Source: Tubulanus polymorphus (lineage: Eukaryota > Animalia > Nemertea). Taken from it: DNA of 64,000 nt. The translations under genes and the position numbers were made by a program. The stretch is from contig NC_134026.1 in NCBI RefSeq assembly GCF_964204645.1, positions 13,638,050 through 13,702,049 on the forward strand. The letters are read 5' to 3'. Positions 9,541 through 62,000 of the stretch are shown here, one piece after another. Numbering within the stretch: position 1 is the first letter of the stretch; every line of letters starts with the position of its first letter. Under the pieces are notes generated by a model, which saw nothing but the letters and a program-made list of their open reading frames with translations, was not told the DNA's origin and searched no databases.

Positions 9541-9542
9541 GG

Positions 9543-10500
9543 CCTTATACCTTCATGACCCAGTAGAAGAAGAATGATTGAGTATTCAAAGTTTTACAGA
9601 AAGATTTACATTGTAACGATGTAACAAGTTTTAAGATAGTTAAGATGGTATAGGCTATGTGGCGATAATGTTCATTTTCTGTCAATATATCCTTACATGA
9701 AGACAAGCCCATTTTAGCTGCCCCAAAGATCACACTACATGAAAAAATGCATCAAGAATTGGTGTAGGCATCGTGCTGAAAAGAAATCCAAGATGGATGG
9801 CAACCCTAGTGGCCATACTTGAACTCAATTTTCAATAAGGGGTAGACATTTAACCTACCGAAATTCTTACACCTAGTATCATGAAAATGCATCAAGAATT
9901 GCAGGCTATTTCGTGCTTGAAATTCAAGATGGCTGACCTGGCGGCCATATTTGAAAGCCAATGACCTCCATATACAAAAGGCATGGACAGCTTATCTGCT
10001 CTGATCCTCACACCAAATTTTGTGGAAATCCATCAAGAATTGCGGGCTGCATCGTGCAAACAAGAAATTCAAGATGGCCACATAATGGCAGCCATATTTG
10101 ATCACCAATGACATTTTTTTACAAAAGGGGTGGACATCTCGCCAGACCCAATCTTCAAGCTAATTTTCAATAAGATTTATCGCAAATTACAGGCGAATTA
10201 CGGTGTCATTTCATGTGAATTCAATTCAATTCCAGAGGGCCTGGCTTAGACCTATGCAATAGGAGTCAATTTAAGATTCGACTTTTTGAAAAACGAGCAC
10301 AGATGCATATTCAAATCACATGTAATTAAAAACATATGCTTCTTAGTTTGATGTCCCTGTTTTCATCGCGCACGTGGTTAAAATTATTGTTTACATCGAA
10401 CATCTTCAACAGCTGATACAACCGCACCCGCGTCTGTCAATCATCTTAATCTATTCATATACTTATATGCTCACTACGAAAAAACAATTAACAATCCATT
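9543..10500 (+). mobile_element. HINE-like repeat family D, uninterrupted copy
   Basis: Colinear with 27915-27996 plus 36276-37130, so it provides the empty-site sequence for the KDZ insertion. Confidence 0.7.
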
Positions 10501-18703: not shown

Positions 18704-21616
18704 TTAATTGAGAAGATACTGTTTGAGAGCACGTTTAAAAACTGGAGGGGATACTGATCCAATGATCTTCAGTGAGTAAGGTAAGTTATTCCAAGTTAAA
18801 GGGGCTGATACTTTTAATGAAAATTTCTTTCGATTGGTTCTAAATTGTTCTACTTTGAATGCATGACGGTTTCGAGTATGATGATGGTTAAAGTCGGAAT
18901 TTAATGAAAAATAATCTGAAAACGAGTTAGGCAGTAGTGAATTCTTATATTTAAATATGAAAAAGCACAATTGAAATTTCGTCATTGCTCGAAAAGTAAG
19001 GATACCTAAGTTTTTGAAGATGGGGGCTGTATGGTCAAAGAAGGTAACCTTCGATATTACCCTGATCGCACGCTTTTGAAGTAGGATTATTGGCCTGATT
19101 CTCGATTCGTAGTTATTGCCCCATATAAAATTGCAGTATTGGAGATACGGGTAAACAAAACTATAGTATAAGGTTTTCATCACTAAAACTGGCAATCGTC
19201 TTTTAACTCTATTCAAGACACCAATACTACGAGAGATCTTTTTACAGACAAATGATATATGGTCAGACCACGTCAGTTTACTATCAATATATAAACCAAG
19301 AAATTTTGTGGAATGAACTTGCTTTATTGGGGCATTTCCAATTTTTATGGCACAAGGGGTACCCTTGAAATTTCCGAAAATCATAAAATAACATTTTTCA
19401 AGGTTAAGAGACAATTTATTAACTTGAAACCACATTCGAAGTTTGATGAGTTCATTGTTTATCAGTTGGAATATCTTCTTATGATCTTTTGAATAAGCGA
19501 AGCATGTTGTGTCATCTGCAAAAAGGGTGAAGTCAAGAATTTTTGAAGCATTGACACAATCATTTATGAATAATAGATATAGAAGAGGACCGAGAATAGA
19601 ACCTTGGGGAACTCCGATAGTTATACCCCTTCTTGACGAGTTAATACCATTAAAACAAACAATTTGACCACGATCAGACAGGTAACTTTCGAACCATTTG
19701 AGAGGTAAACCCCGAATACCATAGTGATCTAATTTACCGAGCAGAATTGTGTGGTTGACCGTGTCGAATGCCTTCTTTAGGTCTAAGAAAATGCCTATGG
19801 CTGAATATTTTTTATCAAGGTATGATGTTAGGGTGTCTGTTACTTTGGCAAGAGCAAGTGCTGTGGAATGATTTGATCGAAAACCGAATTGATTTGAAGA
19901 AATAACGTTATGTTTATTGGGAAAGGAGGATAATCTGTGTAAGACCAGCTTTTCTAAAATCTTTGAAAATACCGGAAGAATAGAGATTGGACGATAATTA
20001 TTGAAATTTTCAGAATCTCCTGATTTAAATAACGGGTAAACTTTGGCTTGTTTCATGTCAGACGGAACAATACCATTATAGAAGCTACAATTAAATATAT
20101 GCGATAAAGGAGCATTTATTAGATCTATTGTGTCTTTAAGTAAAGATGAACTAATACCATCCAACCCTGCACTTTTTTTCAGATAAAAATGTCTAACTAT
20201 AGATTCAATTTCACAAGGATTAGTAGGAAACATTAAGAAATTTTCGTTAGTACGATTTTTCAGGTAATATGTGTAGTTGTGACCAGGGAAATCAGGTATA
20301 GTCTCAGAAATTTGTGAGCCTATTTTAGAAAAGAAATCGTTAAACCCACACGCTATGCGATAGTCGCCTTTGAATTCCTGGTTATTTTGTTTAAGAACAC
20401 TAGGTAAAATAGGAGAAGATGATTTACGAAGTATCTGGTTAATAAGTTTCCATTTAAGTTTCATATCAGTACCTATATCGGTAAACTTTTGAGAATAATA
20501 ATCAGATTCAGCTTTTCTTAAGATTTTAGTAAGAATGTTTTTATAAGAATTGTAACTATTCTTGACATCCACGGATGTAGAACGAATTGATTTCTTATAA
20601 AGTCGGTTTTTGTGCTTAATGGAGTTAAATATCGCTGGAGTAATCCACGGCTTCTCGAGGCGTTGTCTATCATTTAGTTAGGTCGGGAGAAGGGGAAAAG
20701 CTTCATTAAACGCAAGATTAATTTTATTTGAAAAATTATGGTAGGACTGATCAACTTCTGAGCATGAATAAATATCATTCCAATCAGTGCTTAATAGGAG
20801 TCTACGATACTTGGATATATTTTTAGCACAGTAAGAACGCTTCATATTTTGTCTGTTATTTGAACAATTTAAAATCTTCTTGCACATTGTAAAAACAGGA
20901 TAATGATCCGATAAATCAGTACAAATAATCCCGGACGTATGATTAACATTTAAATCATTAGTAAAGATATTATCAATAACAGTGGATGTGTTCGTGGTTA
21001 CTCTGGTAGGCTTATCAATCAATGGAAAAAAAGATGATGAAACCAGAGTATCCACGAACACCTCAGTATTTCTGTGCTCATCAAATTTGGATAAATCTAT
21101 ATTATAGTCACCGATAAGGTAACACCGTTTGTTTTCGCGATTGATATTTACAAGTAGTTTTTCAAACTCTTCAACAAAGGGATCGAGCCTTCCTCCTGGG
21201 GGTCTATAAATTACTCCCATAATGATATTGGAGCGTTTTCCCATATCAATCTCGATAAAAAGAGATTCGAATTTAAGAGAACTTGGTGCGATATCGTTGC
21301 GGGTTTTATATTTCAATGAGTTCTTGATGTAAAGAGCTACTCCACCACCCTGGGTTTCGATCCTGGAATTGAATGCGCTTGAATAACCAGGGATATTATA
21401 CATTATACTATTATCATGGTCATCATTTGTCCATGTCTCTGTGAATCCTAGAACAGAAAATTTATCGGCCGAATAGTAGAGAAAATCCGTTATTTTATCA
21501 AAATTTGAATTGAAACTCCTGGCATTATGTGAAAAAAAAGATAAATTATCTCCACTTGAGAGCAATTCATTTTCGTCGTAATAACGACAGGTATTATTGC
21601 CTGATATATCAACCAT
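18704..21616 (-). CDS. LINE ORF2 (APE endonuclease plus reverse transcriptase) with one in-frame stop at 20678-20680
   Basis: Endonuclease motifs HNARS, FTETW, GGGVALY, IYRPP, GDYN, IDNIF and SDHYPV. Reading through the TAA gives KPWIT and the same frame as the RT, with NYRPIS, QFGFR, DLKKAFDTV, GVPQGSILGP and FADD. Confidence 0.93.
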
Positions 21617-21689
21617 AGAATAAATGTTCTAGTCGAGTGAACACATTAATGTCAACATTGACCCGAGTCGGGACACTCTTTCAAGAGTC

Positions 21690-23033
21690 TTATTCATCAT
21701 CGCCATCTGATTCCACATTTGGTTTTTTCGCTAATTTTTCCGCACTGGGTGGAGAGGTCACCGATCTATTCTTTCTTTTGTTATTTGATGGCGTAGACGT
21801 AATGTCAGGTTTAAGAACAGATTCAAAGTTACTGGAAAGTGCCGACTTTCCTAAATCATTAAGATGCACCCCGCGACTATCACTGACGTTGTAATACCTA
21901 TCTCGAATGTTGCCTGTAGGTTTGATGATCACATCATTATTTATATAAATCATATTTTGCTTAACACAAAACGCCTCCATATATCTATTTACGAAACCAA
22001 CCGCTGCATTATACTCTTTTACAGTAGGAGATGACCCCTTTTTAGGTATGATGCTTGATACGCAAATTTTCGATTTCGGGAAATGCTCCTGAACTTTCGC
22101 TAACCCAATGGTGAAGTTCATTTTAACACTGTCAACATCGGATCTATGACGATTAATGTCGTTAGTTCCGAGATGGACCACGACACTTTCAACAGAATCG
22201 GGATGGGCAATATTTGAGCTAACTTTCGAGAGTAGTTGGTCGATGTATTCAACAGTTGCTCCTGACTGATGAATTACTTTTCCATCGGGGTATTGAAAAT
22301 CCCGCATGTTTGAGTCTCCAAGAATGACAACTTTCGTGCCGGATGGTTGATCAATTGGCTGGTCAATTGAGTGGTCGATTTTAGTACTGTCACTCACTGC
22401 CCGATCTACTCCACCCGCAGGTGCAGAGATCGGCTGTGACATTTTACCACAATCTCGCGCTTTATGGTTTAAACTACCACACCGGTAACACTCGACTGGT
22501 TTTGATCTGAGCTGGCATTCATATGCATTATGATCACCTAGGCAAAACTGACAGCAAAAGCCCGTACCGAAAATCCTGATATTGAAACCGTTGATTTTTG
22601 TGTATGTCAGAATAACCTCAATGACGTTTTTTAACTTAAGATACCTAGTCCGAGTATATATGCTAGTACCTTTAATTCGTCCCATTTTAAATGATCCTTC
22701 AGCATATTCTCCATATTTGGAAACAAAGTTGATAATCGTTTGATCTGACATTTCTATCGGCGCGTCAACTATTTTCAACGCCATGTAGTTCTCACTTGCA
22801 TCAACCAGATTAATGACGTTATCGTTTATTGTCAGACCCAAATGTTGAATCCGATTCTTTGTCTCTAAATCCTTAGCCGTTATTATACATAGTTTTGAAG
22901 TGATCTGGATAGATAATATACAGTTACTCACATTATCTAGTATTTGAGCTAACGCCTCGAATACTTGCTGGTGCGAAGGTTTCATTCCATCTAACTCAAA
23001 TTTGAGTGATTTATCCCTATTTTATCCACTCAT
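21690..23033 (-). CDS. LINE ORF1: putative RRM-like region, CCHC knuckles and SGNH esterase domain
   Basis: 431-aa ORF from 22985; an upstream in-frame ATG at 23033 is followed by a TAA at codon 4. Knuckles are CQFCLGDHNAYEC and CYRCGSLNHKARDC. SGNH blocks are VILGDSN, HLGTND and DSRGVHLN. Confidence 0.85.
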
Positions 23034-27139: not shown

Positions 27140-28510
27140 CTGAAAAGAAAAGAATTTCATATTATAGGGGAGTGTCTAATGAGAAAATCATAAGACTAGA
27201 ATGAGGCAAAGCCTCGGATACCCCCGGCCTGAAATTCACCACCATGTGAAGTTACAGGGTTTGTGGTAAATGCGTTAGAAATGTAATGGCCACAATTATT
27301 TTATAATAATGATATTGGAGAACATGTGTACCAAGTGTAAAAAATTGATCAATAGTTGCAGCCTTTAGGCTGTTTCCCCTGATGGCCATAATTTGAATCA
27401 GTCCACAATTGCGGCCTCTAGGCGGTTTAAAAAAAATGGATCAACAATTGCAGCCTTTAGGCTATAGAGTTCATTTTAAATGTCGGCCCCCTGGTGGTCA
27501 TTATTCGAATCAATCCAATCTCAAATAGGATTCGGGGCCAAGTGATACCCTACTTGTGTACCAAGTTAACAACAATTGCGGCCTCTAGGCCGTTAATGTC
27601 GTTTTTCATCTTGGCCCCCATGTGGCAATAATTTGAATTGAATCAACCCAATTTTGAGAAGGCCTCTGTCCCAAGTGATATCATACTTGTGTACCAAGTT
27701 TGAAATGATTCGGTCAACAATTGCAGCCTTTAGGCCGGGGGCATAAAAATTTGTGTAAAACAGAACTGAGTACAGTCAGTGCCTATTAATAGTACAGAAT
27801 GATGGGTTCAGTCAATGGTCCATACTTGAACTCAATTTTCAATAAGGGGTAGACATCTCACCTACCAAAATTCTTACACCTAGTATGATGAAAATGCATC
27901 AATAATTGCATTGCAGGCCTTATACCTTCATGACGCAATAGAAGAAGAATGATCCAGTATTCAAAGTTTTACAGAAAGATTTACATTGTAACGATGCAGG
28001 TATATAAACTGCCTATTTTTGTAACTTGCTCATACAGTTGCTCATGAGCATTTTTTGGGTTTTGTAAGTTGCTCACATCTACTGAGGTGAGCCAGTGTAT
28101 GGTTTTTGAAAGTTGCTCACATTTACTGAGGTGAGCCAGTGTAGGGTTTTTGAAAGTTGCTCACATCTACTGAAAGAGTTTTTCAAGTTGCTCATACATT
28201 CTTAAAATGATTAAATAGGCCTATCAAGCTACCAAATCTTAAACTTAACTACACCAACTATTCAACTATCTATAACATTGTATAGACTAATTTTACTCTA
28301 AAATACAGATGTCTCTAATTTGCTTTAGACTAATTTAGCCTACTTACTTACTCTTAAAGCTCACTCCCTAATTAGCCGTAAGTCCCTATCAAATTTCCCC
28401 TAATTGCCTTAAGACTGATGTCACCCTAAAATATAAATTTCATTAATTTGCCTCTACACTAGTATACTGACTAGTATACAGTTTACTTTAAACAATCAGG
28501 TGATAATATG

Positions 28511-28544
28511 TATAAAAGCCTTGCTTCAGTGTGGTATATCAGTC
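28511..28544 (+). promoter_or_regulatory. TATA box plus initiator upstream of the NRF1-like gene
   Basis: TATAAAA at 28511 and TCAGTC with its A at 28541, a 30-nt spacing. The ATG is at 28591. Confidence 0.6.
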
Positions 28545-28590
28545 GGAAAACTTATTTTGTCATGGACACGTATATATTTAATTATCATTG

Positions 28591-30329
28591 ATGGATACCG
28601 CTACGCAACGTGCAGTTAACCGCATTGTAAAAGGTGTAAATTCGTATGTGAAGGACACATCCATGGATGCTGGAGCTTTTTTTTTTTTACACAGATAAAA
28701 TAACCAAACAAAAAACACTAGGAATTGTTGGATCGCCATTAATGCGCGCAGCGTTCGAGGAGAACAAGGACATTATTGCGGAGTCTATTGCCAATGGATT
28801 AACTTCAGTGACGGTAATACCTCCAGGGGAATGTATAACTGCTCTAGTTGTGGAGTTTAAGTTACCTAACATAATGATCGACTATGGGAAACCACTGTCC
28901 CGATTACCACTGACAGATTTACGGGTGATAATTTCAACTGTGGTGTTAATATCCAAATTGATGGACAATCCAAATGCTGAAAAATTGCCTCGATGGGGAA
29001 ATGAGAGTAAAAGAACGCCATGGTGGCCAGCGGATTGCAAGTGGCTAAATCCGAGATGTGACAAAAGAGATGCATCAGAAAAAAAGGGAGAATCAGCAGC
29101 AAATGTGTGTCGCAGAATAATCACTGCGGCATATAGATATCATAACGTATTGAGTCTTACTGGTAAGTCTATTAAATTTTATGATTTATGATAACTAGCA
29201 GGCCATTACCATCAACAAACACAGGGAACCTCCCTGAACAGACAGGCCACCATCATCATAAAACATAATTTTAATCTTATTTCATTTCTTATTTATGCAG
29301 GTGATGAGAATGGTCTTAGCAATGAAGTCACCTCTGCTACAACCGTTGATGCTGCATATATAAACAGTACATATGCAATCCCCAGTGACCCCGCTACTCT
29401 GTTAAGTATGTAATAAAAATCATTTGCTAAAATTAAATAACATCTATTTGATAATCATATATTGCAGTATCTTGTATATTGCAACCTCTACAATTATAGT
29501 TTAATACTTTTTTGTACTTTTATACTTCAGTTGAAGACTTCCCAACCAGCACCAGTAATGAGACGTATATTTTGCCTCTTAATTCGACATCCGAAGCCAC
29601 TGAAATTGATAACTTGGATATTGGTAGTAAGTATATAAGTAATATGCATTATTAATGCTATTAGTGAATTCATGTACCCATTATTGTGTATATTTTACAT
29701 TCACAAAATAATTTAGATTGTTTCTATTTTTCCGATTCATATTTGATATTTTTGCCAGTAGGTTTTGCTTGTAGATAATTTTGTACCTATTTCCATTTTC
29801 AGATGTTTCTAAAATCATAGAGGCAGTGAATAATGCAAGTGATTTAATGAACTTGAATTTTTCATCCTTACTGGTGGAAAGTGTTGGTAAGTCTTATTTT
29901 GATTTTAAATTGATAATGAAATGTCACAAAACAGCTTCCCTTGAATGATTGTTCTATTCAGTAATTATTCTGTTATTTAAATAGAAAATAGATATAGTGA
30001 AGAGAAACAAGCTGATGGTTCGCTACATACTCCGAATACTACTATGATTTGTGACAATATTCAGAACCATGCACATTCGGACAGTATTCCTGCAGGTAAA
30101 TTGAAATTATATCCTTTTAAGAGGGATGAGATAATCAGAAAGAAAACAAGAAATTTGCAGTTTATGTGTTTGCTCATATTTTTCATTTCTTTTTCAAACA
30201 GATGTGACTAGAGATTTGTCCAACAGCACTCAGAATGTTGCACCAGTCCGCCAAAGTCGTGCCCGAAAGGTTACCAAAAGAATGGAGGAATGGAAGAAAA
30301 TGGAAGGGAAACGTCGACGAATTGTTTAA
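28591..30329 (+). CDS. Transposon-borne NRF1/P3A2/erect-wing-like DNA-binding-domain protein, 6 exons, ~365 aa, one frameshift in a T12 run
   Basis: Exons 28591-29162, 29301-29405, 29531-29626, 29803-29886, 29985-30095 and 30202-30329; all introns are GT-AG and phase 1. LPNIMID..LTDLRVII..LPRWGNESKRTPWWPADCKWLNPRCDKRDASEK..CRRIITAAYRYH aligns by eye with recalled NRF1 LPPLTID..TQAQLRAFI..KPGWGKESCKPIWWPEDIPWANVRSDVRTEEQK..LRTIVKNCYKQH. Confidence 0.85.
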
Positions 30330-30462
30330 TTCTAATTGTCAGACATGTAAATATTCAAAATTCGATGTATATGAGTATTTTAAACTTTTTGATCAATATA
30401 GTTATTGCTTGCTTACAAATGATTGCTTTCTTTCCTTATCAGCATATAAACACACACCATGG

Positions 30463-31374
30463 TAGGGTCCCTACAGATCATTCTACAATCATTCTAGAAT
30501 TCAAGGACTTTTGAAGGATAAAATTTCAAATTTGAACGAGTGTCTGCATCACTTTCATATCCAAATTACGGTCCTAAAACGGTACTGCTTATCTTGGTAA
30601 ACCAGTAATTTGGTGGTTGTAAAAGCAAATTTTTATCTTTTACCCTACTACACTTGATTTCTAACTGTCTAATTGAGTAAAAAAATCCTAGTTCCAACAG
30701 TACCGATTTAGGAATAGTGTATCTCTTCTGTTCAACTACAAACGTAAACAAAAATGTACAGAAATGAACTTAAAATTCGCTGATTGAACATTTTGCAAAA
30801 CGTTTATCATAAGTTTTCGGAAGCCAATCCTTAAGGTCTGGATCCTGAAGCCAGTTATCATTAAATGCAGTTTCCCCGTGGCATTTTGAAGAATATGATA
30901 GTGTAGATGTGTAACGAATAAAGCCTGATGTATTCGAGTGATACATAATTACTGTCTCAACTAAGAGTGAAGCAACACTTTAAACCCTTGAAAATACTGA
31001 TTGATTAAAATAACAGACCCGCTAATCAGTACTAATTTCCCAACCAGGCAGTCTTAATTAAATAATGCTGAACAATTCTGAACATAGTTCTTTTGTCCAA
31101 GAGATACAATGAGAACCACAGCAGACACTATGTATTAATCATACTACAATTAGCTGGTGAAAGACTGTGTGTATGGGGCCTATGACTACTAACTAGGCCT
31201 AATCTTGGAAAACACTTGTAACCTAAACATTTTCTCATTGCCAATTTCTCAAAATTCAAGGAGTTTTCAAGGACTTTAGGGCATTTTGCTCCAATTAAAG
31301 GATATTCAAGGACCTTGAAAAACATTTTTGGTTTAGAGGAGTTTTCAAGGAATCAAGGACCTGTAGGGACCCTG
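30463..31374 (-). mobile_element. Non-autonomous hAT-like element nested between the two KDZ genes
   Basis: TIR agggtccctacag / ctgtagggaccctg with flanking CATGG(T) duplication. A minus-strand relic FNDNWLQDPDLKDWL..AKC resembles a hAT BED-finger N-terminus. Confidence 0.7.
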
Positions 31375-31913
31375 CATGGTGTAATCAGTGTAGAATATAA
31401 CACTGTAGAACAATACTTGGTCCGTGGACAAATATGCATCAAGTGATAACATAGAGACATAATCTTGAAGAAACACTCTACGGTATTCATGTTGCAGCGA
31501 CAATTCATAAAAAAAATATTGCTTGTGTTTGATCAGTTTCATTTTCTGAGCGTGTCAAAAAAAGTTTGTCAGTAAAAAATTAAAATGCGCATCCCGCATG
31601 CAGAAATGTTTTCGTTTTTTTTCACTATTTGAATTTGGATTAAGGCTTGTCACTTTTCCAAAAAGGGCTGATGAGAAACAACGGTATTTCTTCATATGGC
31701 CTAATCCCACAATAATGATTAAGAATAAGTCAGAAATGTTTCCTTTGAGCTAATGTCTTATTCGATTTCAAGTTTACAAAAATATTCCATGTTTAATTAA
31801 TTATATTATTTACAGAAAGAAATTTGTGGCAAAATACAGAACAATTCAGGTAGGCATAGTGAAACCTGGTAAATGTGTTATGATACAATACATATTTCAG
31901 ATTCAATTTTTTT

Positions 31914-34900
31914 TTACAACTTTACATTTTTATCCTGATTTTTAAGGACCAGAAATAGTGCTACATGCCGAACAAAGTTTTCTGGCTTCATGTAAGCAAG
32001 TTGACTTTTCAGGCGAATAAGTCCCGAATTAGCTTTTTCATTCAGTTGTGAATTAATATTGGAAAGATCCACATTGCTGCAGTAAGTGTCTAGTTTATAG
32101 CCAGCACAACACCTACAAAATGGAAAAAAATTTGATACATATATACATGACGAGTAGATGAGGTGATGAAAGATATAATTCACGAGATAATACATACCCT
32201 GTATGATTTACCCAATGCATTCTGTCCACACAAAATATAGTGTTCTTGAAAAATTCTGGTTCTCTGTAATTAGAATAATTAATGGACTTACTTCAATAAC
32301 AATCAACCTCGGTTAATCGCTATCACTTGGGACTGAGCTCTTTAGTATCGATAACAGGTAATCCGTTATCTATGAATTACTTAATATTTCTATGATCAAA
32401 TATAAGTGCACGGGCCAATTGCCTAAATGCTTACCTATTAAGAGCATATTGATGCAGCTTGCATGCATTATCATGCACGATCATAGACGGTGGCCTGGTG
32501 AATCTTGTCTTAAATATTGAAAATGGAAATCGTGGCGATTCATGAGACTCCATGGCCTATAATACAATATACAAACGAATTAACAGATACAGGGTAAGAG
32601 GTAATTGCTTTTAAAAAGAATAATTCGATTGAATGAGTATATTCACCTGAAATCCATAGCAGATTCCATGCGGACAAAACACAGTAAAAATCCCTGGTGT
32701 AAGAACCCTGTGGCGTTTTGACATCTTATTACAGGCATCATCCCGGCACATGTCATTATCCTTCTTATCATCCATTACATATGCTGCATCACTAAAAAAA
32801 CATATCTGCCCTTATATATCACATTGACAAATGAAAAACATGTTGAACTGAAATTACATTAATAATACCATTACTTTATCAATAAATCTTCCTAATCACA
32901 GAAAGTATTCATTACCTGTGGTGTTTAGGTAAACTCGGGAAAAATGACAAACTCTTGAAAAGATTTTCGTATGGAGCTGGTGTGTATATATAATCCTTGT
33001 TGCACTGCAATCAAAAGTAAATCAGACCATAAGCTCATCAGGCATTATCTAAAATATGTATTTACGATGTAACGAAAACTTCTCACATTTTCTCTAAATT
33101 ATCATCCATTAAAAATTCATTACCTTAAAACAAGCTTGTATTTTCTTCAGAAGTTCTCTTATCAAATCAATGTAGTCATTATACAGGTTACCATCTGATA
33201 AACTCTGACTGATAAACTCAATCAGTATAGGTGCATCTATCAGTAGCTGATTAAGTATCTCTGAATTCTTACTATCAAATGTTTCAGTTATCTCGGACAG
33301 CGCGTGATCCAACATATCTATGACGCGATCCAAATCATTGGTCTGTAGAAGAGCACATGCTGGACCGTTGGCACTGATTGCTTGAAGGAATTTTGTCTCG
33401 GATGATTTACAATTTAATGAGTTTGAAGCGGACACTATATTTTTGAGCGGGTTAAGGTGTTCATATTTGCTGATTTGCAGAATTAAATCCTGCTTTTCTT
33501 CTGGTGTCAGTGGTAAAGGAGATCTTGGTTCTACGTGAGTTTTCGACGAAACCTTCGGCCCCCAGGCATATTGTGAAAGTAATTTTCTCGCTTTGTTGTC
33601 TGGTACAAACACTCTATCTTGTGTGCCTGAAATCCTCGTGCCTGCGTTATGAAAATTCATCAACTGTATCGACTTGAGAAAATCTTTTCTAAAACCCAAA
33701 TCAACACCGTCGCAAACAATAACCTAGAAAAGAAAACCTTTATTACATATATTTCCAGGAACCCTACTGTCAAGTTGGTATTTTCAATCAGTCAATAATT
33801 TACCTGAGGATGTTTTCCACACCAAACGCATAGGAATTTTCTAGCCCAATCAAAATCTAGCAGATGCATCAGACCATTCCATGCACGCTGAAGCGTATGG
33901 AGAGGAATAATAGGAATCTTGGAAAGCGTTCGTGATGATCTTGTCAAAGCTCTTAAAAATAAATTCAAATTAGACTAATCCCTAAATTAGAAATCATTGA
34001 GTTGTAGTATAAAGTATCTAAAACAGCAAACCTGTGGAATGTTGAGAGGGCACCTTCCATCTACCATCAAATGCATGTATTTAAACAGCATGCAGTAATC
34101 TACAAGGTCTTTGTTGTTGATATTCAGGATACCATCTGTATTTCCATCGTAGAATTGTTTACATTGACAAACTTTTTCTTTGGTCGGACGGAAATATACT
34201 AGAAAAAATTGAAATGGTTAAAGTTAATCACTTACAAGTAGAAGAGATTAAAACACGTTTCTATAATAGAAAATTCATACTTGAAAACTTGGTGAAAACT
34301 CCATTTAGAAACTGTCCATCAAGTGACCCGAGCTCAGTGTGAATGGTACATGTACCACTTTCCAATTCATTAAAACAGGATCACGTTCATCCCAAACATT
34401 TCCATGCTCACATGTACCACCAGTCTTTGTCGGAATAAGATTCGATGGAAATGGCATTCCCCTGCTGCGTTGACCAAGAACAGTTGCAATTTGATCACTA
34501 CAGGGATATGACACATTTTCTGTTATTAATTTACGAGTGATTACTTCTGATTCATTAGTGAAGTCCTCTATTTGAGTTTCTGGATATGGAATAGATTCAC
34601 TGTGACACCAATCACGATAGCGAGAAATGTGATCGCAATGACTATTAAATCTGCATTCCTCGCATATTAATTTCTTCAAACGTGGTTGCCAACGGATAAC
34701 ACTTGTCTTATCATCCAGAGTCACACTGACAACTAGAGGAGAAACTGACAACTGATTAACAATGCAAACATCCACGGGATCACTGATATTCTGCACATCA
34801 TAAAGCTTATTAACGGCATACGCATGAATGCAATACTGATTTTCTTCGCGTTTCATGAAAGTCGATACAGTTTCACCCTCGACTGCCCTTTTAAGAGAAA

Positions 34901-35719
34901 GAAGTCGATTTCTGCTGAGGTGTGCATTCTTACAGCTACATGTTAACACTTTAAATCCCTCTCCAACACAGAAAAACTGTAAACTATACAAAACAACATG
35001 CACATCTTTCAGAATAGTTCCTTGATCATTGCTATCGGCTACAATATACGTTTGGCCGTTTATGTTCCAATGGCGATGAGTCTTCTTCAGTTCACCTACA
35101 TAATACACGTGCAGACCCAATTCCAAGTCAACTGCAAGAACGGTGTCAATATGCCTATAAGAAAATATAGAACGGATATGAGAAATATATTCATTTTTCA
35201 ATAGATGTGAAACCTTTCATTTAATCACAAACATATTATTTTAAAGGAAATTTTTTCATTATAGACAAGTAAGAAGTATTTTTTATCTTTAGGGTAGACA
35301 CTGAGCAACTTTCATGAGCAGCTCCCATAAAATTAAAATACCTGAGCAAGTAAATGAGCGGCGTGCATAAATGGCCTACCCACCTGACCTGAGCAAGTAT
35401 ACATGAAAAGCAACTAGTTTCTAGTGTAATTAAGGCCATTACGGCATTAGGCCTATATATAAAATGCTGTGCTTAGAGGCTCATTTAGCTACATAGCAGG
35501 CAAGGATTCACAACGAAAAATAACTTACTGGAGAGATGTCGCAATAATTACGTCGCTGCTTGACGACGACGGTGTGTTTGTCGTTCGTTGACGTTGTTGT
35601 TGCCGACCATTTTTTTTGAGAACTGCGACTGTGGTTCTACGTTTTTTTGGTTTTGGATTACCAGCACTATCTCCGACTCCGGTGCCAGCGATCATATCAT
35701 TGTATGATCGCCGAGGCAT
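31914..35719 (-). pseudogene. KDZ transposase, 10 exons, about 2 apparent frameshifts
   Basis: Exons 35719-35529, 35154-34281, 34198-34032, 33951-33804, 33723-33124, 33004-32916, 32791-32647, 32556-32435, 32263-32198 and 32112-31914. Motifs include SWIM-like CSC..CIH, FLCVWCGKHPQVIVCDG, TPGIFTVFCPHGICYGF, ESPRFPF, MIVHDNACKLHQYALNREP, DRMHWVNH and NSQLNEKANS. Confidence 0.88.
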
Positions 35720-37639
35720 TCTAAGAAAATCTATCTATGGATATAACCTTTCTGCGTGAGTAGTAGTGCAACGACTTCGAACTTTCTGCTCGGATATTGT
35801 CTGATTAAACGTAAGCCGGCAGCGCCCAGTGACACAATTCAATTCAATAAAGATTTATTGCAACCAGGTTACGGAAATAGGTTTGAATCCCGCATGCAAC
35901 AAATATTTTTCCTGCAACGTGCGCGTAGCGTATGATTGTAAAAATCATAATCATACAATAAAACTTTATTTATCAGATTAATTTTGCAATAAAACTTTCG
36001 AGTAAAAGTCAATGAAGTACAGGCTCGCACAAACTGATACCGTCTACGCCTACGGCACGTCTTTCGCGAATTGCTTTCTACTCGATGATGAGCAGTGTTG
36101 ACTGCTCACCCAATGAGCAGTGTTGACTGCTCACCCAGGTCCGCGAGCCGAGCGATCTGCCGTGCCTGAGCAGTTTACAGTGCTCAGCATGAGCAGAAAG
36201 CAATTCTTAGAAATGCTCATGCGCAACTCATGTGAGCAACTTACAAAAAGCACTGAATTTTATAGCTCAACGATGTAACAAGTTTTAAAATAGTTAACAT
36301 GGCTATGTGGCGATAATGTTTATTTTCTGTTAATATATCCTTACATGAAAAGACAAGTCCATTTTAGCTGCCCCATAGATCACACTACATGAAAAAATGC
36401 ATTAAGAATTGGTGTAGGTATCAAGCTGGAAAGAAATCTAAGATGGATAGCAACCCTGGCAGCCATACTTGAACTCAATTTTCAATAAGGGGTAGACATC
36501 TCACAAATTTCTTACACGTAGTATCTTGAAAATGCATCAATAATTGCAGGCCGTTTCGTGCTAGAAATTCAAGATGGCTGACCTGACGGCCATCTTTAAA
36601 AGCCGATGACCTCTATATACAATAGGCATGGACAGCTTACCTACCCTGATCCTCACACCAAATTTTGCGGAAATCCATCAAGAATTGTGGGCTTCATTGT
36701 GCAAACAAAAAATTCAAGATGGCCACCACAATGGCAGCCATATTTGATCACCAATGCCTTTTTTCACAATTGGGGTGGACATCTCGCCAGACCCAATCTT
36801 CAAGCTAATTTTCAAAAAGATTCATCGCAAATTACAGGCGAATAACTGTGTCGAATTCAATTCAATTCCAGAGGTCCTGGCTTAGGCCTATGCAATAGGA
36901 GTCAATTAAGATTCGACTTTTTGAAGAACCAGCACAGATACCTATTCAAATCACATGTAATTCAAAAATTCAGTGCTTCTTAGTTTGATGTCCCTGTTTT
37001 CATCGCGCACATGGTTTATATTATTGATTATTGTTTACAGTGAATGTCTTCAACAGCTGATACAACCGCACCACCATCCGTCAATCATCTTAATTGATTC
37101 ATATACTAAAATGCTCACTATAAAAAAACTATGCGGTGAATCAATCCAGAATTTTTCAGTAGAATGTCAGTTACTAGGTACCTTTCTTTAAAGGTTTATT
37201 TGTTGTATGTCATTAACAATCAGTTATATAATACTTTATTCATATACTCAAGCAAGATCAGTCAAATAAGCCAGCGATAACACAAAACAGACCATGGTTT
37301 TCCCAGTTAAGAGCGTCTCTCCACATAAATTAGAGGGACTATAATGGACCATTTGTTGACAAACGTGAAACTAATATGGCTACAGTCGAAATTAAAACTA
37401 GTTACTGACGAAAATATGGAAATAAACAACTATATCATGGAATAGGCCTATGTTAAGTGCTATTTCAAAAATGTATGTGTGGCACTATTTTAAGCGCGGA
37501 CTAATACTGTTTTACTTCTAGACAGGGGTGGCGCTAATTAAAAGTTTCAATTTTTTTATTTCAGCAATATCTAATTAACCAAATAACAAAAATTCACCAT
37601 ATATGAACTCAACCTTCTATGTTTCATATTTAAACGACT

Positions 37640-40495
37640 GTGAAAGTTACAGACACGTACATGGCGTAAAACGGACGTAATCGTTTGACGTGACGGATTT
37701 CACGATAACAATAGGACGAGGTGTTCTACGTACCGTTGTCCTAAAAAGATTCGGATTTGCCCCTGTCTCATACACATTGCACCACCATGCGTCCACCCTA
37801 TCGCATTTTGGATCATAAGGTATCTTAGAAACAGCCGGATCAGAGTGGAATTTTCTCACCTCTTTTTCATAACATTAAAATTTCTTCTGGCTGAAGAATA
37901 GTTGTCAATACTTTCTACGGGATTTGAAGCATGTATTTAAGCGCATTAGTATAGCCACGACAAGCAGGGTCTACACTAGAAAAATACAAGAGGGCCATAT
38001 TCTCAAGGGCATTTTCATAATGAAGTATTTTCCACAATCAACATACGCTGTAGAAATCATGTTCAAAAACTTAACACGGAGGGAGTCGTCTTTCCTAAGT
38101 CCCTCTAACAGTCCCTCAGCTGCCTATAAACAACTCTCTGTCACGCATTTTGGCTTCATGACCTCGGGAGTCATGCAGACAAACCAGTTTCTGACCAGAT
38201 GCTGCTTTACAGATAATCTCTGGTTTAACAATACAGGAGAGAAAGTTCCTAACTAAGTCAGTTATCATGTCATATAAAACGTGTATCATTGGCTTATTCA
38301 TTTCCAGCGTCATTACATATTTCTTTAGAAATGGGAGTACAGACTCATAGAAATATGCGTACAAGACCGTTTCCTTAGACTTAATTACGATCTTCTCGTA
38401 AATTCATTGCTTGCGGTTTTTACCAGCCTCTGTTAATCCTTTAGATGACAGTTTCAGCAAGATGCTTTTGATGTGATCTCGAGCCTCAGTAGACACACCA
38501 TGATCCTTATAAATCTCATCAATGATGATAGATAAAGCACTTTGTCATTCTTGTACAAAAAAGAGTAATAAAACACGGTATAAGCATCCTTCAAGTGCAA
38601 AAACGAAAGTGTAGCATCATAGGCAGAAAGGCATCGATGGTCAACGAATCTGTGTGGCATCTGAAATGTAATACCAAGCGAGTTACATATCTCTTCGAGT
38701 GCGACTACGAGATCAGTTGAGAAGTTGAAATCATTGTACAGGTCATTGTATAAGTTTTCCAGATACCTTTCAAATGGTTTACACAGTTTGTGACTTGCAT
38801 TATGAGCATGATGACAAGTGTCGCCATCAATATCAATTAAATGTGGAGCCATGTTGCTGCGAATTCTCTTTTCCACACCGGTTTTGGAACCACGCATAAC
38901 ACTACAACTGTCCATCAATATGGAAATAACATAACACCAGGGAAGTTCACGTTTCACAAATGCATTCGTAATACAGTCATAAACAGTCTGGGAATTGACG
39001 GTCGACATTGAAATGAATTCAAGATGTTCCACGAGAACTTGCTTTCTCTCTAGCGAAAGGTAGGCCACAAGTAAAGCCAGTACACAAGAATGATTGGAGC
39101 TGATGGCTTCATCAATGTTTAAGGAAAACGGCACTACAGCTAGCTTATCTTTTAACTGGTTTTCAAAAGTTTTCGCAATACCATACTTCATCTTATAAGA
39201 TGAACTTGTTCGATCAACTGACAATGATGATAATGCAGTCTTGTCAGCTGCCATGCCTTTAGACAGTTCTATTAAAGCAGGTGATGCTGTGAACGGCAGT
39301 GAATGTTCAGCCATAAACCCGAGTAACATGGATTCCATGTTACTAACCCTGTCTTCTACTGGTACATTTCGTTTTGGTGGGTCTCGCAAGACAGTCTGTT
39401 GCTTGCCAAACATCTGATGAAGACCATAAGTAGTTTTATCAGACTGGCCACTGGAAGTCCCTGAAAAGTTAAAATCTAATATTTTTAGACTTACTTTAAA
39501 AACCTGGATATATTAGGCTGAGGGATTCAATGTACGCTATAGGACTGCACCTGCCCAGTAAAACAGTATCCAACTTAAAGTTGGAACTAAAAAAAAATTG
39601 GGCATAGGCTCCGGCGCGCCCACGCCATTTTCATTCATCCCCCTTTCCCCCATGCACGCCTACCGCAATTGCTGAAATAACGTGCCCCAACCCAAAATTG
39701 AAAATGCATGCAAAAAAGAAAAAAATCCACTCACCTTCACATGGTGCAGCAAAAAATAATTATTAGGCCCAAACCTTTAGGCCTCCCATAAGCTTCTACT
39801 ACAGAAAAAATAATAGCAAAAAGATTTACAAACCTGGGAGAACGTAATTAGACGAAATATCTTTGACGTTTTTCCGATGTTTATTCGACGCGACGTGGTC
39901 TGTCAGTGCAGGTTTTCCCCTGGTATCATACTTTAACACAGCATCACAGGCCGTGCAATACACTTTCCCCGGAGCTTGAATTTTTCTTATGTATTTAACG
40001 AGAAACTCTCCACCTACGTCAGCCTGCAGACAGGCCCACCTCCAGCCATTCGCGAGTGATTTTTCGGATTCAAGCCTGTCACTCGTGCCGGCACGGCGAA
40101 TGAGAATGTCACCTCACATTTTACTACTAGCGTATTGTTATTTCAATTTACCAATCGAAGACGGAAGGCATGCTTGGCACGCTTATTCTTCAAGCGCTCT
40201 CATTCATGAGATGAGCGATATCATTGGCTGACAACCATGAGCTTTAGGCCAATCACAATAACTGTTTCGAATAGACACAGCTTGGACAGCGGAACGACGA
40301 ATTTAAAGGGGAGGAAGCACGTCGTTCGCGTTCATTATCTGTGAGGGGATATAGGTTCATCGATATTCCATCAACCAACCACCCCCCCATGTTTTCTCAT
40401 CGGATTTGGACGAATTGCAAAACTGATATTTTTTGAAGAGGAGAAACGCAGAAAAAATCCGCAGATCCGCGGACCTCTCACATGTAGGCCTATGC
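37640..40495 (-). mobile_element. Degenerate hAT transposon with transposase pseudogene
   Basis: BED-finger exon at ~40075-39834 (WRW..KVYCTACD..DHVASNKH). The ORF at 38454-39413 has FSLNIDE, ILMDSCSVMRG and DTCHHAHNA. A candidate terminus ccgcggacctctcacatgt lies at ~40468-40486; the other end was not resolved. Confidence 0.82.
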
Positions 40496-59053: not shown

Positions 59054-62000
59054 GTCCCTGTGCTGTGACTTTTAGGCGCAAGTCGCTGGCTAACGTTTCT
59101 AGTAATAAGCGATAATGCAATGAAAATCGTCATCGGGTCGAAATTGAGATATCGATGCATTCGCCATCTCGTGGATATTCTGTACACTATATAAAAAAAT
59201 TATATTAAAAAAATATCTGTAAGGTACCGAAATTAAGGTTTTAGAATTTTTGTCAAGCCCCTTTATCCAAGAAATATCACGTAGAATTAATAAATTTTGT
59301 GTTGAAAATGAAAAACCCTCGAAAAAAATGTACCCCCTCATGTCGCATATCGTAGGATTCGAAACTAAACGGAGAATACACCGATTATAATGCGCATGCA
59401 CTTCTCCTGCCCTGAAACTAGTGCGCAGCCAAAGTCTCAATCATTTCCTGGTTGTAAGTTCGTCACAAAAAAGGACCGAATTTTCCGTTTCTGAAGATGG
59501 AATCAGCACTGCAAGAAGTCGAAATGTGTACAAAAACAATTTAGATATACTGCAAATTTAGTATTTCCATGTTGAAAGTCATAATTATCGGATTGGACGC
59601 ATTTATTTTGACAGACTTAAAAACTAATTTCCGCCGAATTTCCAAACAGCCGTGAATCCAAGATGGCGGCGCCCATGGACGATATTGAATGTGACATTAG
59701 TAAACAAAAAAAAGTTGCAAAGTGTATTAATGAACTAATGTCTCTTAACATGAACACAGAAAATGACAAAGACAATTGGCAGAGTGTAATTTGTGATTAT
59801 TTTGGTGATGATTCTGAAGATGACCAGATTAGCAGCAGCAGCAGCAGTGACGACAGTAGTAGTGATGCGGATTTAAGTGATGACCGTGATGTTCTTGTCG
59901 ACAGTACTGTGCACACTCCACCTCAAAATGCTCAACATTTGATCCAGAATACCAACACAGAGGTTGAAATTCAGCAAAATGAACAGTTTACAGAGGAAGA
60001 AATTCAAATAGGTAAGACTTATTTCGTACAACATGTTTTGTATGGTCCACTTGACTAATACTGAAATTCCCATTACTGTCGGCTATGAATGTATGTGTGT
60101 GATAGGCCTAACTTTATGGTCCATACACATAACCATGTGGCTGTTTTAGCAATACCAGAATTCTAACTGTCGGCTATGAATGTATGTGGTGATAGGCCTA
60201 ACTTTATATGCCAAAATTATTAGTCTGGAGTCGTTGAGATGTTTGTGATCGCTACGGTATCCGGTGAAACGAAGGTAATTGACGAGGTATGTAGAGAATT
60301 GCCTATGGTTACATATCAATAAAGATGCTTAATTTTTATTTTTCAGAACCACCCATAATCAATATCAGAGAGGCTGAACAAATTGCTACACAGAATGGAC
60401 GTGACCCATCCACATAACCTACTGATGACAAACGGAAGAGGAAGTCAAATCTGCCGAGTGTAAAAAAATCGATTTGTCGCAAATCTGTAAGCGCTGTAAG
60501 CATAATAACGGTAAACCATGTCAAACGCGCTACAGTCCAGAGTATTTGAATAACCTTAGACTCTGTACTGCAGAATTATCCAATGAAGAAAAAGACATTG
60601 CTATCTTGGCAAAAATTGCATGTTCAATGCATATGTCAGATCAGACTATGAACACGAAACGTCGCAAGCAAAAGGAACGAGAGGGAAGACGTTCGACGTT
60701 TTTTCACCACGGTGAACAAGTTTGTAGAGACATGTTTTGTTATATCAATTCTATAAGCAGAGGTACATTAGCTACTTTACATGAACATTACAGACAAAAT
60801 GAGGGGTTCTTAGTACCCAGAATCCATGGTAATAGGAAACGGCTTCCAAAGCACACAATCTCAATTGATGACCGAAAGTGCATTGTTACATTTATTTTGA
60901 ATTACGTTGAGGTACACGGCATATATCTGCCTGGAAGAATTCCTGGCTATAAAAGAGATGATTTGAAACTTCTGCCTACTGATTGTACCAAGAAGAAAGT
61001 TTACTGTGAGTATGAAAGAGCATGTAAATTGGTTGAAAGAAATGTTGTATCTTATGCTTCCTTCCGCCGTACATAGCGTGATATCACTCCATTTGTAGTT
61101 TCTATGAAGCCAGCAACAGATCTGTGCTGGCAATGCCAGAAAAATTCTAATCTGATTATGAGAAATGCCAACAAATCTGAGTCAGCAAAGTCCGAGACTC
61201 TTAAAAAGGCTGAGATGCATTTGTCATTAGCCAAGTCCGAACGGGAGCTTTATAAGTCACAGTGTCAAGATTCCAGAATTGGTCTCCCCAATGACTTAGC
61301 TCTTGGCAACCATGAACCATGTTCCCTTGCCACCCAGCATCCAGTGCATTATTCAATGGATTTTGCACAACAAGTGCACTTTCCTTGTAATCCATTACAA
61401 CCTGGCCCAATCTACTTCAAAACTCCGAGGAAATGTGCTATCTTCGGCGTACATTGTGAGACACTCTCACGCCAAGTTAATTTTCTCATCGACGAAGGTA
61501 TGCTGGTTGGCAAGGGAAGTAATACTGTTATTAGCCTGTTAGATTATTTCTTCTCAAACTATGGTTTAGGAGAAGAGCATGTAAGCTTGCATGCCAACAA
61601 CTGTTCAGGCCAAAACAAGAATAATATGCTATTGTGGTATTTTCTCTGGCGCTGCATCACAGGGCGCAACAAAAGCATAGTGTATAACTTCTTGATTGTT
61701 GGCCATACTAAATTTAGTGTAGACTGGGCCTTTGGGCTCTTTAAACAGAAGTTCAGACACACCAAGGTGAACACACTTAGTGATATTTGTAATGCAGTTG
61801 TCCAGAGCAGTAATTGTGGTTTAAACATTCCGCAGCTTTGTGAGGATGAATCCGGCCAATGCTTTGTACCAACCGATGATTGGTCCACCTTTCTCGGCCA
61901 ATACTTTCGTAAGTTTGAGGGCATAAAGAAATGCCACCACCTTAGTTTTGAGAAAGGTAGCACAGTCATGACTGTCTAACAGTATTGTAACAGTGACGAA

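Follow-up and report, generated by a model that had tools for sequence, protein, structure and literature searches.

A KDZ transposon with an NRF1-family second gene and NRF1-site-like motif arrays at both ends in the nemertean Tubulanus polymorphus

In a stretch of 64,000 nucleotides from the nemertean Tubulanus polymorphus (contig NC_134026.1, positions 13,638,050 to 13,702,049 of the forward strand; hereafter the window, with positions counted from its first letter) we describe a KDZ transposon whose second gene belongs to the NRF1 family. The element is real and well delimited, and both its ends carry arrays of the short motif TGCTCA/TGAGCA, whose half-site TGAGC differs from the NRF1 half-site TGCGC at the middle base only. 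Judging from the sequence, it is likely that the element's own NRF1-like protein binds these arrays. That it would also help the transposase to recognise or pair the ends, by analogy with the two-protein system of Harbinger transposons, has in our view about an even chance of being true.

The limits of the element follow from an uninterrupted paralog of its flanks, found by self-comparison of the window at 9541-10488, and from sequencing reads. AACGATG is present once in this paralog and on both sides of the element here, while 236 reads of an Illumina DNA run connect position 27989 directly with 36269, with seven letters fitting either side. Because the empty paralog has AACGATG once and the reads join the flanks, the element can be placed at 27997-36268 with a 7-bp target-site duplication:

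27990-27996, no strand: left target-site duplication AACGATG, 7 bp (empty paralog with single copy at 9615-9621; read joint 27989 to 36269)
27997-36268, no strand: KDZ (Zisupton-like) DNA transposon, 8272 bp, with two convergent genes (empty paralog, read joints, loose read ends)
27997-28053, plus strand: left imperfect terminal inverted repeat (TIR), the outer ~19 bp a poor match and the inner ~38 bp a close match to the right end
36211-36268, minus strand: right imperfect TIR (comparison with the left end)
36269-36275, no strand: right target-site duplication AACGATG (empty paralog comparison and read joints)

The original prediction, which was made from the letters of the window, had put the termini at 28027 and 36238; the paralog and the reads move them to 27997 and 36268. 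A target duplication of 8 bp was considered and rejected, since the sequence reads TAACGATG at the empty site and CAACGATG at the right junction. The sequence that received the insertion is a dispersed repeat in its own right, present in many copies and containing units of ~140 bp (9541-10488; 27916-27996 and 36269-37132). Read depth is ~350-920 in the flank versus ~8-30 across most of the element interior, and since the flank is a high-copy repeat the joining reads represent empty paralogs, not necessarily an empty allele. Ten reads and five contigs depart from the window sequence exactly at 27997, and their loose ends agree poorly beyond this position (0.63 and 0.55), a sign of other insertion sites. 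Transposase-related models ~95% identical are present on two other contigs, so that such models are found on three contigs in total, which together with the target-site duplication is the behaviour of a mobile unit. Protein model P0001 (LOC141912150), related to the NRF1-like gene, lies on one contig with the transposase fragment P0080 (LOC141912151), and their locus identifiers are consecutive, which points to a second copy with both genes. The copy in the window is probably a damaged member of its family, as both of its genes look frameshifted.

Five features carry the terminal motif:

28027-28194, plus strand: left array, seven TGCTCA/TGAGCA sites including three 44-bp units (motif count, shuffles)
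28039-28050, no strand: palindrome TGCTCATGAGCA, matching the NRF1 consensus at 10 of 12 positions, 42 bases from the left end (motif scan)
35302-35395, minus strand: third cluster, four TGCTCA sites in intron 1 of the transposase gene (0 of 5000 shuffles)
36089-36238, no strand: right array, nine sites, with two 25-bp units and three TGAGCA-N8-TGCTCA pairs (motif count, shuffles)
36214-36225, no strand: TGCTCATGCGCA, matching the NRF1 consensus at 11 of 12 positions, 43 bases from the right end (motif scan)

Both 12-mers, the counts of seven and nine sites and the 44-bp spacing in the left array (sites at 28070, 28114 and 28158) were found exactly as originally predicted. Two N8 inverted pairs had been claimed on the right and both are there (36089/36103 and 36114/36128), but a third at 36167/36181 had been overlooked. 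The suggested check for enrichment at the termini, with the rest of the window outside the element (55,729 bases) as background, also turned out positive: 21 sites in this background give 0.09 expected per 250 bp, and the observed count at either end was reached by none of 5000 dinucleotide shuffles, nor was that of the intron 1 cluster. These P-values overstate independence, since the 44-bp and 25-bp units are duplicated and the sites are partly copies of one another. TGCTCA/TGAGCA is the top 6-mer common to both ends, and the remaining 6.9 kb of the interior hold two sites, which equals the background prediction. The two 12-mers are the only ones in the window with at most one mismatch from the left palindrome; these full dyads lie at matching places in both TIRs and have a 2-bp AT centre, which NRF1 prefers according to Table 1 of PMC10810270. 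As for the chance of such likeness, among the 2080 canonical 6-mers only 10 differ from TGCGCA by no more than one base, which makes 0.5%, or 0.2% when weighted by their frequency in the window.

The gene next to the left array is the following:

28591-30329, plus strand: NRF1-family gene of six exons, 28591-29162, 29301-29405, 29531-29626, 29803-29886, 29985-30095 and 30202-30329 (Pfam PF10491, fold, exon model)

Its product has a dimerisation domain, a DNA-binding domain, a low-complexity acidic middle and a basic tail. The open reading frame (ORF) at 28652-29191 matches PF10491 (E = 1.3e-13, 51.6 bits, cut-off 23.5), with ~50 N-terminal residues of the Pfam model unmatched, and it also matches both human NRF1 structures by sequence. 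The structure predicted for it, built from 12 sequences including canonical NRF1, has a mean predicted local distance difference test score of 83.8 and superposes on 8k4l with a Z score of 14.9 and a root-mean-square deviation of 1.9 Å over 96 residues; the other NRF1 structure gives Z 14.2 and the next unrelated fold 5.5. A frame beginning at the ATG at 28591 lengthens the match into the dimerisation domain, scoring 113.3 bits against the family hidden Markov model (HMM) versus 104.8 bits without it, a gain as high in 2 of 500 shuffles. Sequence homologous to the dimerisation domain is thus present, but in this copy the frame is broken at a run of 12 T (28677-28688). When five more GT-AG exons are added, a frame of 332 residues stays open, and its translation shares 89.5% identity with P0001. 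Three of the introns are skipped in one contig of run X4, while the DNA run is without such joints; this suggests a transcript of the gene, the kind of run X4 not being on record. That the element carries an NRF1-family gene is supported by the PF10491 match, the predicted NRF1 fold and the base-reading residues, which are kept. Residues 328-379 of P0001 match Harbinger-type DDE_Tnp_4 proteins, and with such a tail the model probably runs into another transposon.

Relatives of the protein were sought among representative sequences. Of 63 matches, the 61 with PF10491 were kept and two that matched just the P0001 tail were left out. In a quick tree (106 columns, Shimodaira-Hasegawa-like approximate likelihood ratio support of 98, with a long-branch warning) a divergent group, defined beforehand from low Pfam scores, comprises 11 proteins, the window protein included (three from Tubulanus, two from Ptychodera, three from gastropods and three unnamed) and stands apart from 51 canonical NRF1/Ewg proteins. 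Orthology to the host NRF1 was not recovered in this quick tree with its 51 canonical proteins and long branches, and this separate grouping argues against the idea that the element recently captured the NRF1 gene of its host. Tubulanus polymorphus has another NRF1-like gene on a different contig (P0003, LOC141915157), 47% identical and of the N-P-K type at residues 242-244; this locus is a candidate second transposon family. The Ptychodera genes XP_070541359.1 and XP_070532876.1 have N-P-K and N-P-S, respectively, at these residues. In the gastropods Elysia, Physella and Bradybaena (P0035, P0048 and P0058) a protein of 900-980 amino acids has an N-terminal NRF1-like domain of the N-P type, without the R206 equivalent, and this is possibly a domesticated member.

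The structural work on human NRF1 described in PMC10810270 allows protein and sites to be compared. There, TpG is recognised by R206 and the outer G and C by N242 together with the side chain of R244, while the central base of TGCGC, the one that differs in the element, is contacted by the main-chain carbonyl of R244. Equivalents of R206, N242 and R244 are kept in the window protein according to both multiple alignments and the HMM alignment. Between N242 and R244, proline replaces valine at 243 in all 11 divergent proteins and in none of the 51 canonical ones. We infer that this V243P change may retune the backbone contact of R244.

It could be argued that the arrays are weak or decayed sites for the worm's own NRF1, used for expression of the element. 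In the alignment, the canonical DNA-binding domain hardly varies among animals, and the right site keeps one perfect half: the single TGCGCA, with its CpG, in the right TIR. Binding data in Table 2 of PMC10810270 give human NRF1 a dissociation constant of 0.31 uM for the consensus and 2.23 uM for the right-end variant, so the latter is still bound, if 7-fold worse; the double variant, i.e. the left palindrome, is bound weakly, which speaks against host NRF1 and fits avoidance of the host factor. That one TGCGCA is the only such site in the arrays, while T is found in 20 sites, counting both ends and intron 1. A change of G to T is not the product of methyl-CpG decay, and the sites are therefore not simply decayed host sites. 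Taken together, use by the host NRF1 is very unlikely.

The original prediction had further proposed that the motif shift removes the CpGs that make NRF1 sensitive to methylation, a sensitivity established in mouse embryonic stem cells as described in PMC6923324. CpGs are indeed lost through the change, which deamination would not produce, but the right dyad keeps one. The observed/expected ratio of CpG is 0.82 in the window; over the leftmost 500 bp of the element (27997-28496) it is 0.07, and around the transposase start (35497-35996) it is 1.53. Escape from methylation as the purpose of the shift seems improbable to us.

The second of the two convergent genes encodes the transposase:

31914-35719, minus strand: KDZ transposase gene of about ten exons (spliced 3' part equal to RefSeq model P0081; Pfam KDZ)

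Its spliced 3' exons are identical to P0081, a RefSeq model of Tubulanus polymorphus. The KDZ transposase domain (PF18758) passes the Pfam cut-off of 26.6 narrowly, with 27.3 bits in P0081 and 27.7 bits in P0079, while P0080 gave no PF18758 match; the catalytic core is in exons 5-10. Exon 3 taken alone resembles CxC4 (E = 0.0048, 17.2 bits, under the cut-off of 26.9), this domain being split by an intron, and in exon 2 a SWIM-like CxC..CxH motif can be seen by eye, for which a Pfam scan of the exon gave no SWIM match. An Atlas search, taken for leads only, returned a first match at 0.90 and a SWIM cluster at 0.82. A search with exon 2 brought up no relative among 1030 candidates, and no KDZ relative was found in viral contigs. 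With the strongest splice sites the frame fails to stay open through exon 3, so the transposase of this copy is probably broken; the junction of exons 2 and 3 is unsure.

These possible N-terminal zinc domains bring in another explanation, namely that the arrays are ordinary subterminal repeats bound by the transposase, that their likeness to NRF1 sites is due to chance and that the NRF1-like gene is cargo with some other role. Subterminal repeats are common in DNA transposons. KDZ elements are described as carrying varied extra genes (PMC12730594, PMC11343200). This explanation, however, needs a motif coincidence of 0.2-0.5% and, in addition, dyad spacing like that of NRF1 sites, all beside the gene of an NRF1 homologue. 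Eight distant KDZ loci from a metagenome scan (35-61% identity in the best segment), in which no match to the NRF1 HMM was seen at a useful E-value, show no such array, which is a weak control, since seven of the eight belong to a single family and the ends of these loci are not defined. They have at most 1-4 sites per 250 bp on a background of 0.9-2.8 per kb and, with undefined ends, neither refute nor properly test binding by the NRF1-like protein. A cluster of four TGCTCA sites in one of them (L005, 11652-11843) was rejected as a counterexample: it lies ~1.3 kb beyond the shared sequence of the family, apparently in another gene, and the DNA around it has 2.2 sites per kb. On the 3' side of their transposase, the seven loci L001-L003 and L005-L008 carry repeats of ~140 bp in tandem, the core of which is CATGCATG (e.g. 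L005:10001-10374). We consider binding by the transposase alone, with the NRF1-like gene as cargo, unlikely.

If the NRF1-like protein is the binder, an intact copy of it would dimerise and bind the N0 palindrome in each TIR as well as further half-sites; V243P, next to R244, would shift the backbone-read base from C to A and thereby keep these sites apart from those of the host NRF1; and the bound protein would then recruit the transposase. Recognition of the ends by this protein is supported by the fact that, apart from the transposase, the one gene seen in the element encodes an NRF1 homologue. Several observations nevertheless weigh against this proposal. On the side of the protein, only five of the 12 backbone-contacting residues listed in PMC10810270 are identical in the alignment, a pairwise phmmer alignment is placed differently and pairs R206 with no arginine, and the R206 position is leucine in P0001 and in 6 of 22 reads. 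Other members of the divergent group have the same proline, which weakens the proposed retuning by Pro243. As to the T run, 4 of 25 reads have it one base shorter, i.e. in frame, and 10 have it two bases shorter; with just four reads of the in-frame length, most copies seem to be broken too. On the side of the sites, the left dyad has a 4-base spacer between its halves in three reads and one contig, so the perfect palindrome is not universal. The three N8 pairs are oriented opposite to the NRF1 dyad, and a good number of the sites stand as lone halves; for NRF1, PMC10810270 describes spacers of 3-7 bp as costing 3-14 fold, and the DNA-binding domain alone as binding half-sites. Several repeat units share an A/T-rich flank longer than NRF1 reads, the shared unit (TTTTGWAASTTGCTCA) often exceeding the half-site, and the transposase, with its own SWIM-like and CxC4-like zinc domains, is a candidate binder of the motif too. 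The chance figure of 0.2-0.5% is post hoc, obtained after the motif had been seen, but it is tied to the one cargo gene. As far as PMC11343200 describes them, other KDZ elements move without a known partner of this kind. Predicting the transposase core and the NRF1-like domain as a complex, with no alignments used, gave a score of 0.00, which speaks neither for nor against a partnership.

The position of the arrays upstream of both start codons would fit a role in promoters equally well, which is again a point against end recognition. The NRF1-like protein could bind the same sites as a regulator of transcription, controlling both genes of the element, instead of belonging to the complex that cuts. 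NRF1 itself acts at promoters, and the NRF1-like protein has a long acidic low-complexity tail; the left array precedes its ATG by ~400 bp, the right array precedes that of the transposase by ~370 bp and lies in the CpG-rich DNA mentioned above, and the intron 1 cluster is ~900 bp from the element end. On the other hand, the full dyads are inside the TIRs, 42 and 43 bases from the cut sites, where end-binding factors act, and the two roles can coexist. Autoregulation in place of a role at the ends thus appears to us not very probable.

Extending the proposal that the NRF1-like protein binds the ends, we may speculate that a KDZ lineage across marine animals carries its own NRF1-family end binder, that in each family residues 242-244 and the terminal motif are retuned jointly so as to avoid the host NRF1, and that the stray N-P genes of hemichordates and gastropods, perhaps even NRF1/Ewg itself, descend from it. 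This wider scenario is doubtful.

Other mobile sequences are present in and near the element. One of them sits between its two genes:

30463-31374, no strand: nested high-copy non-coding insertion, not part of the parent element (ends TAGGG/CAGGG..CCCTG, CATGG on both sides, depth peaks, loose ends at 31374)

The CATGG flanking this insertion is a possible 5-bp duplication, and the depth peaks are at its ends. Outside the element, we tentatively take the ORFs at 18704-23021 (minus strand) to be a LINE-like reverse transcriptase/endonuclease set, 38454-39512 (plus strand) to be a hAT-like fragment and 59621-61979 (plus strand) to be a further DDE-like transposase broken by stops.

If binding and assistance at the ends by the NRF1-like protein are true, the element would be a second, independent case of the Harbinger design, i.e. 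a transposase accompanied by a transcription-factor-like end binder, in the poorly understood KDZ superfamily, for which our literature searches found no demonstration of end recognition. It would also provide a natural NRF1 variant with a predicted one-base shift in specificity and with its target sites beside the gene, comparable to the solved NRF1-DNA structure, and would hint that orphan NRF1-like genes of invertebrates came from transposons. No report of an NRF1-family gene in a transposon was found in these searches, which did not cover Repbase, so that an earlier record may exist.

Compared with known systems, the element resembles Zisupton-type KDZ elements such as KDZx1 of Cryptococcus deneoformans, as described in PMC11343200 (PF18758, PF18717), in having a KDZ domain above the Pfam cut-off, preceded by possible CxC4-like and SWIM-like domains, as well as a target duplication and an additional ORF between its ends. 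However, Zisupton and Dileera are given an 8-bp duplication in PMC12730594, versus 7 bp in the one insertion here. Kyakuja has, in the same source, a 7-bp duplication as here, but CA..TG ends and no TIRs, in contrast to CA..TC and imperfect TIRs here. With an apparently Zisupton-type architecture but a 7-bp duplication, the element is filed under KDZ with the clade left open. Its second gene is of the NRF1 family, while in the known KDZ elements these sources describe it is TET/JBP or an unknown ORF. With NRF1, Erect wing and P3A2 (PF10491; structures 8K3D and 8K4L, PMC10810270) the encoded protein shares the layout of dimerisation and DNA-binding domains, the predicted fold and the equivalents of R206, N242 and R244; it differs from them in its ~25-30% identity, its separate N-P-[RK] group, the change of most backbone contacts, the location of its gene in a transposon and an apparent site of TGAGC, not TGCGC. 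The closest parallel to the proposed mechanism is PIF/Harbinger, where, according to PMC9710019, the Myb-like protein of Harbinger3_DR binds a subterminal 9-bp motif: in both, a separate transcription-factor-like protein (Myb-like/MADF there) would bind short subterminal motifs and partner the transposase. The transposase (KDZ here) and the DNA-binding fold (NRF1 here) are unrelated to those of Harbinger, and the partnership, demonstrated for Harbinger, is for the Tubulanus element a prediction.

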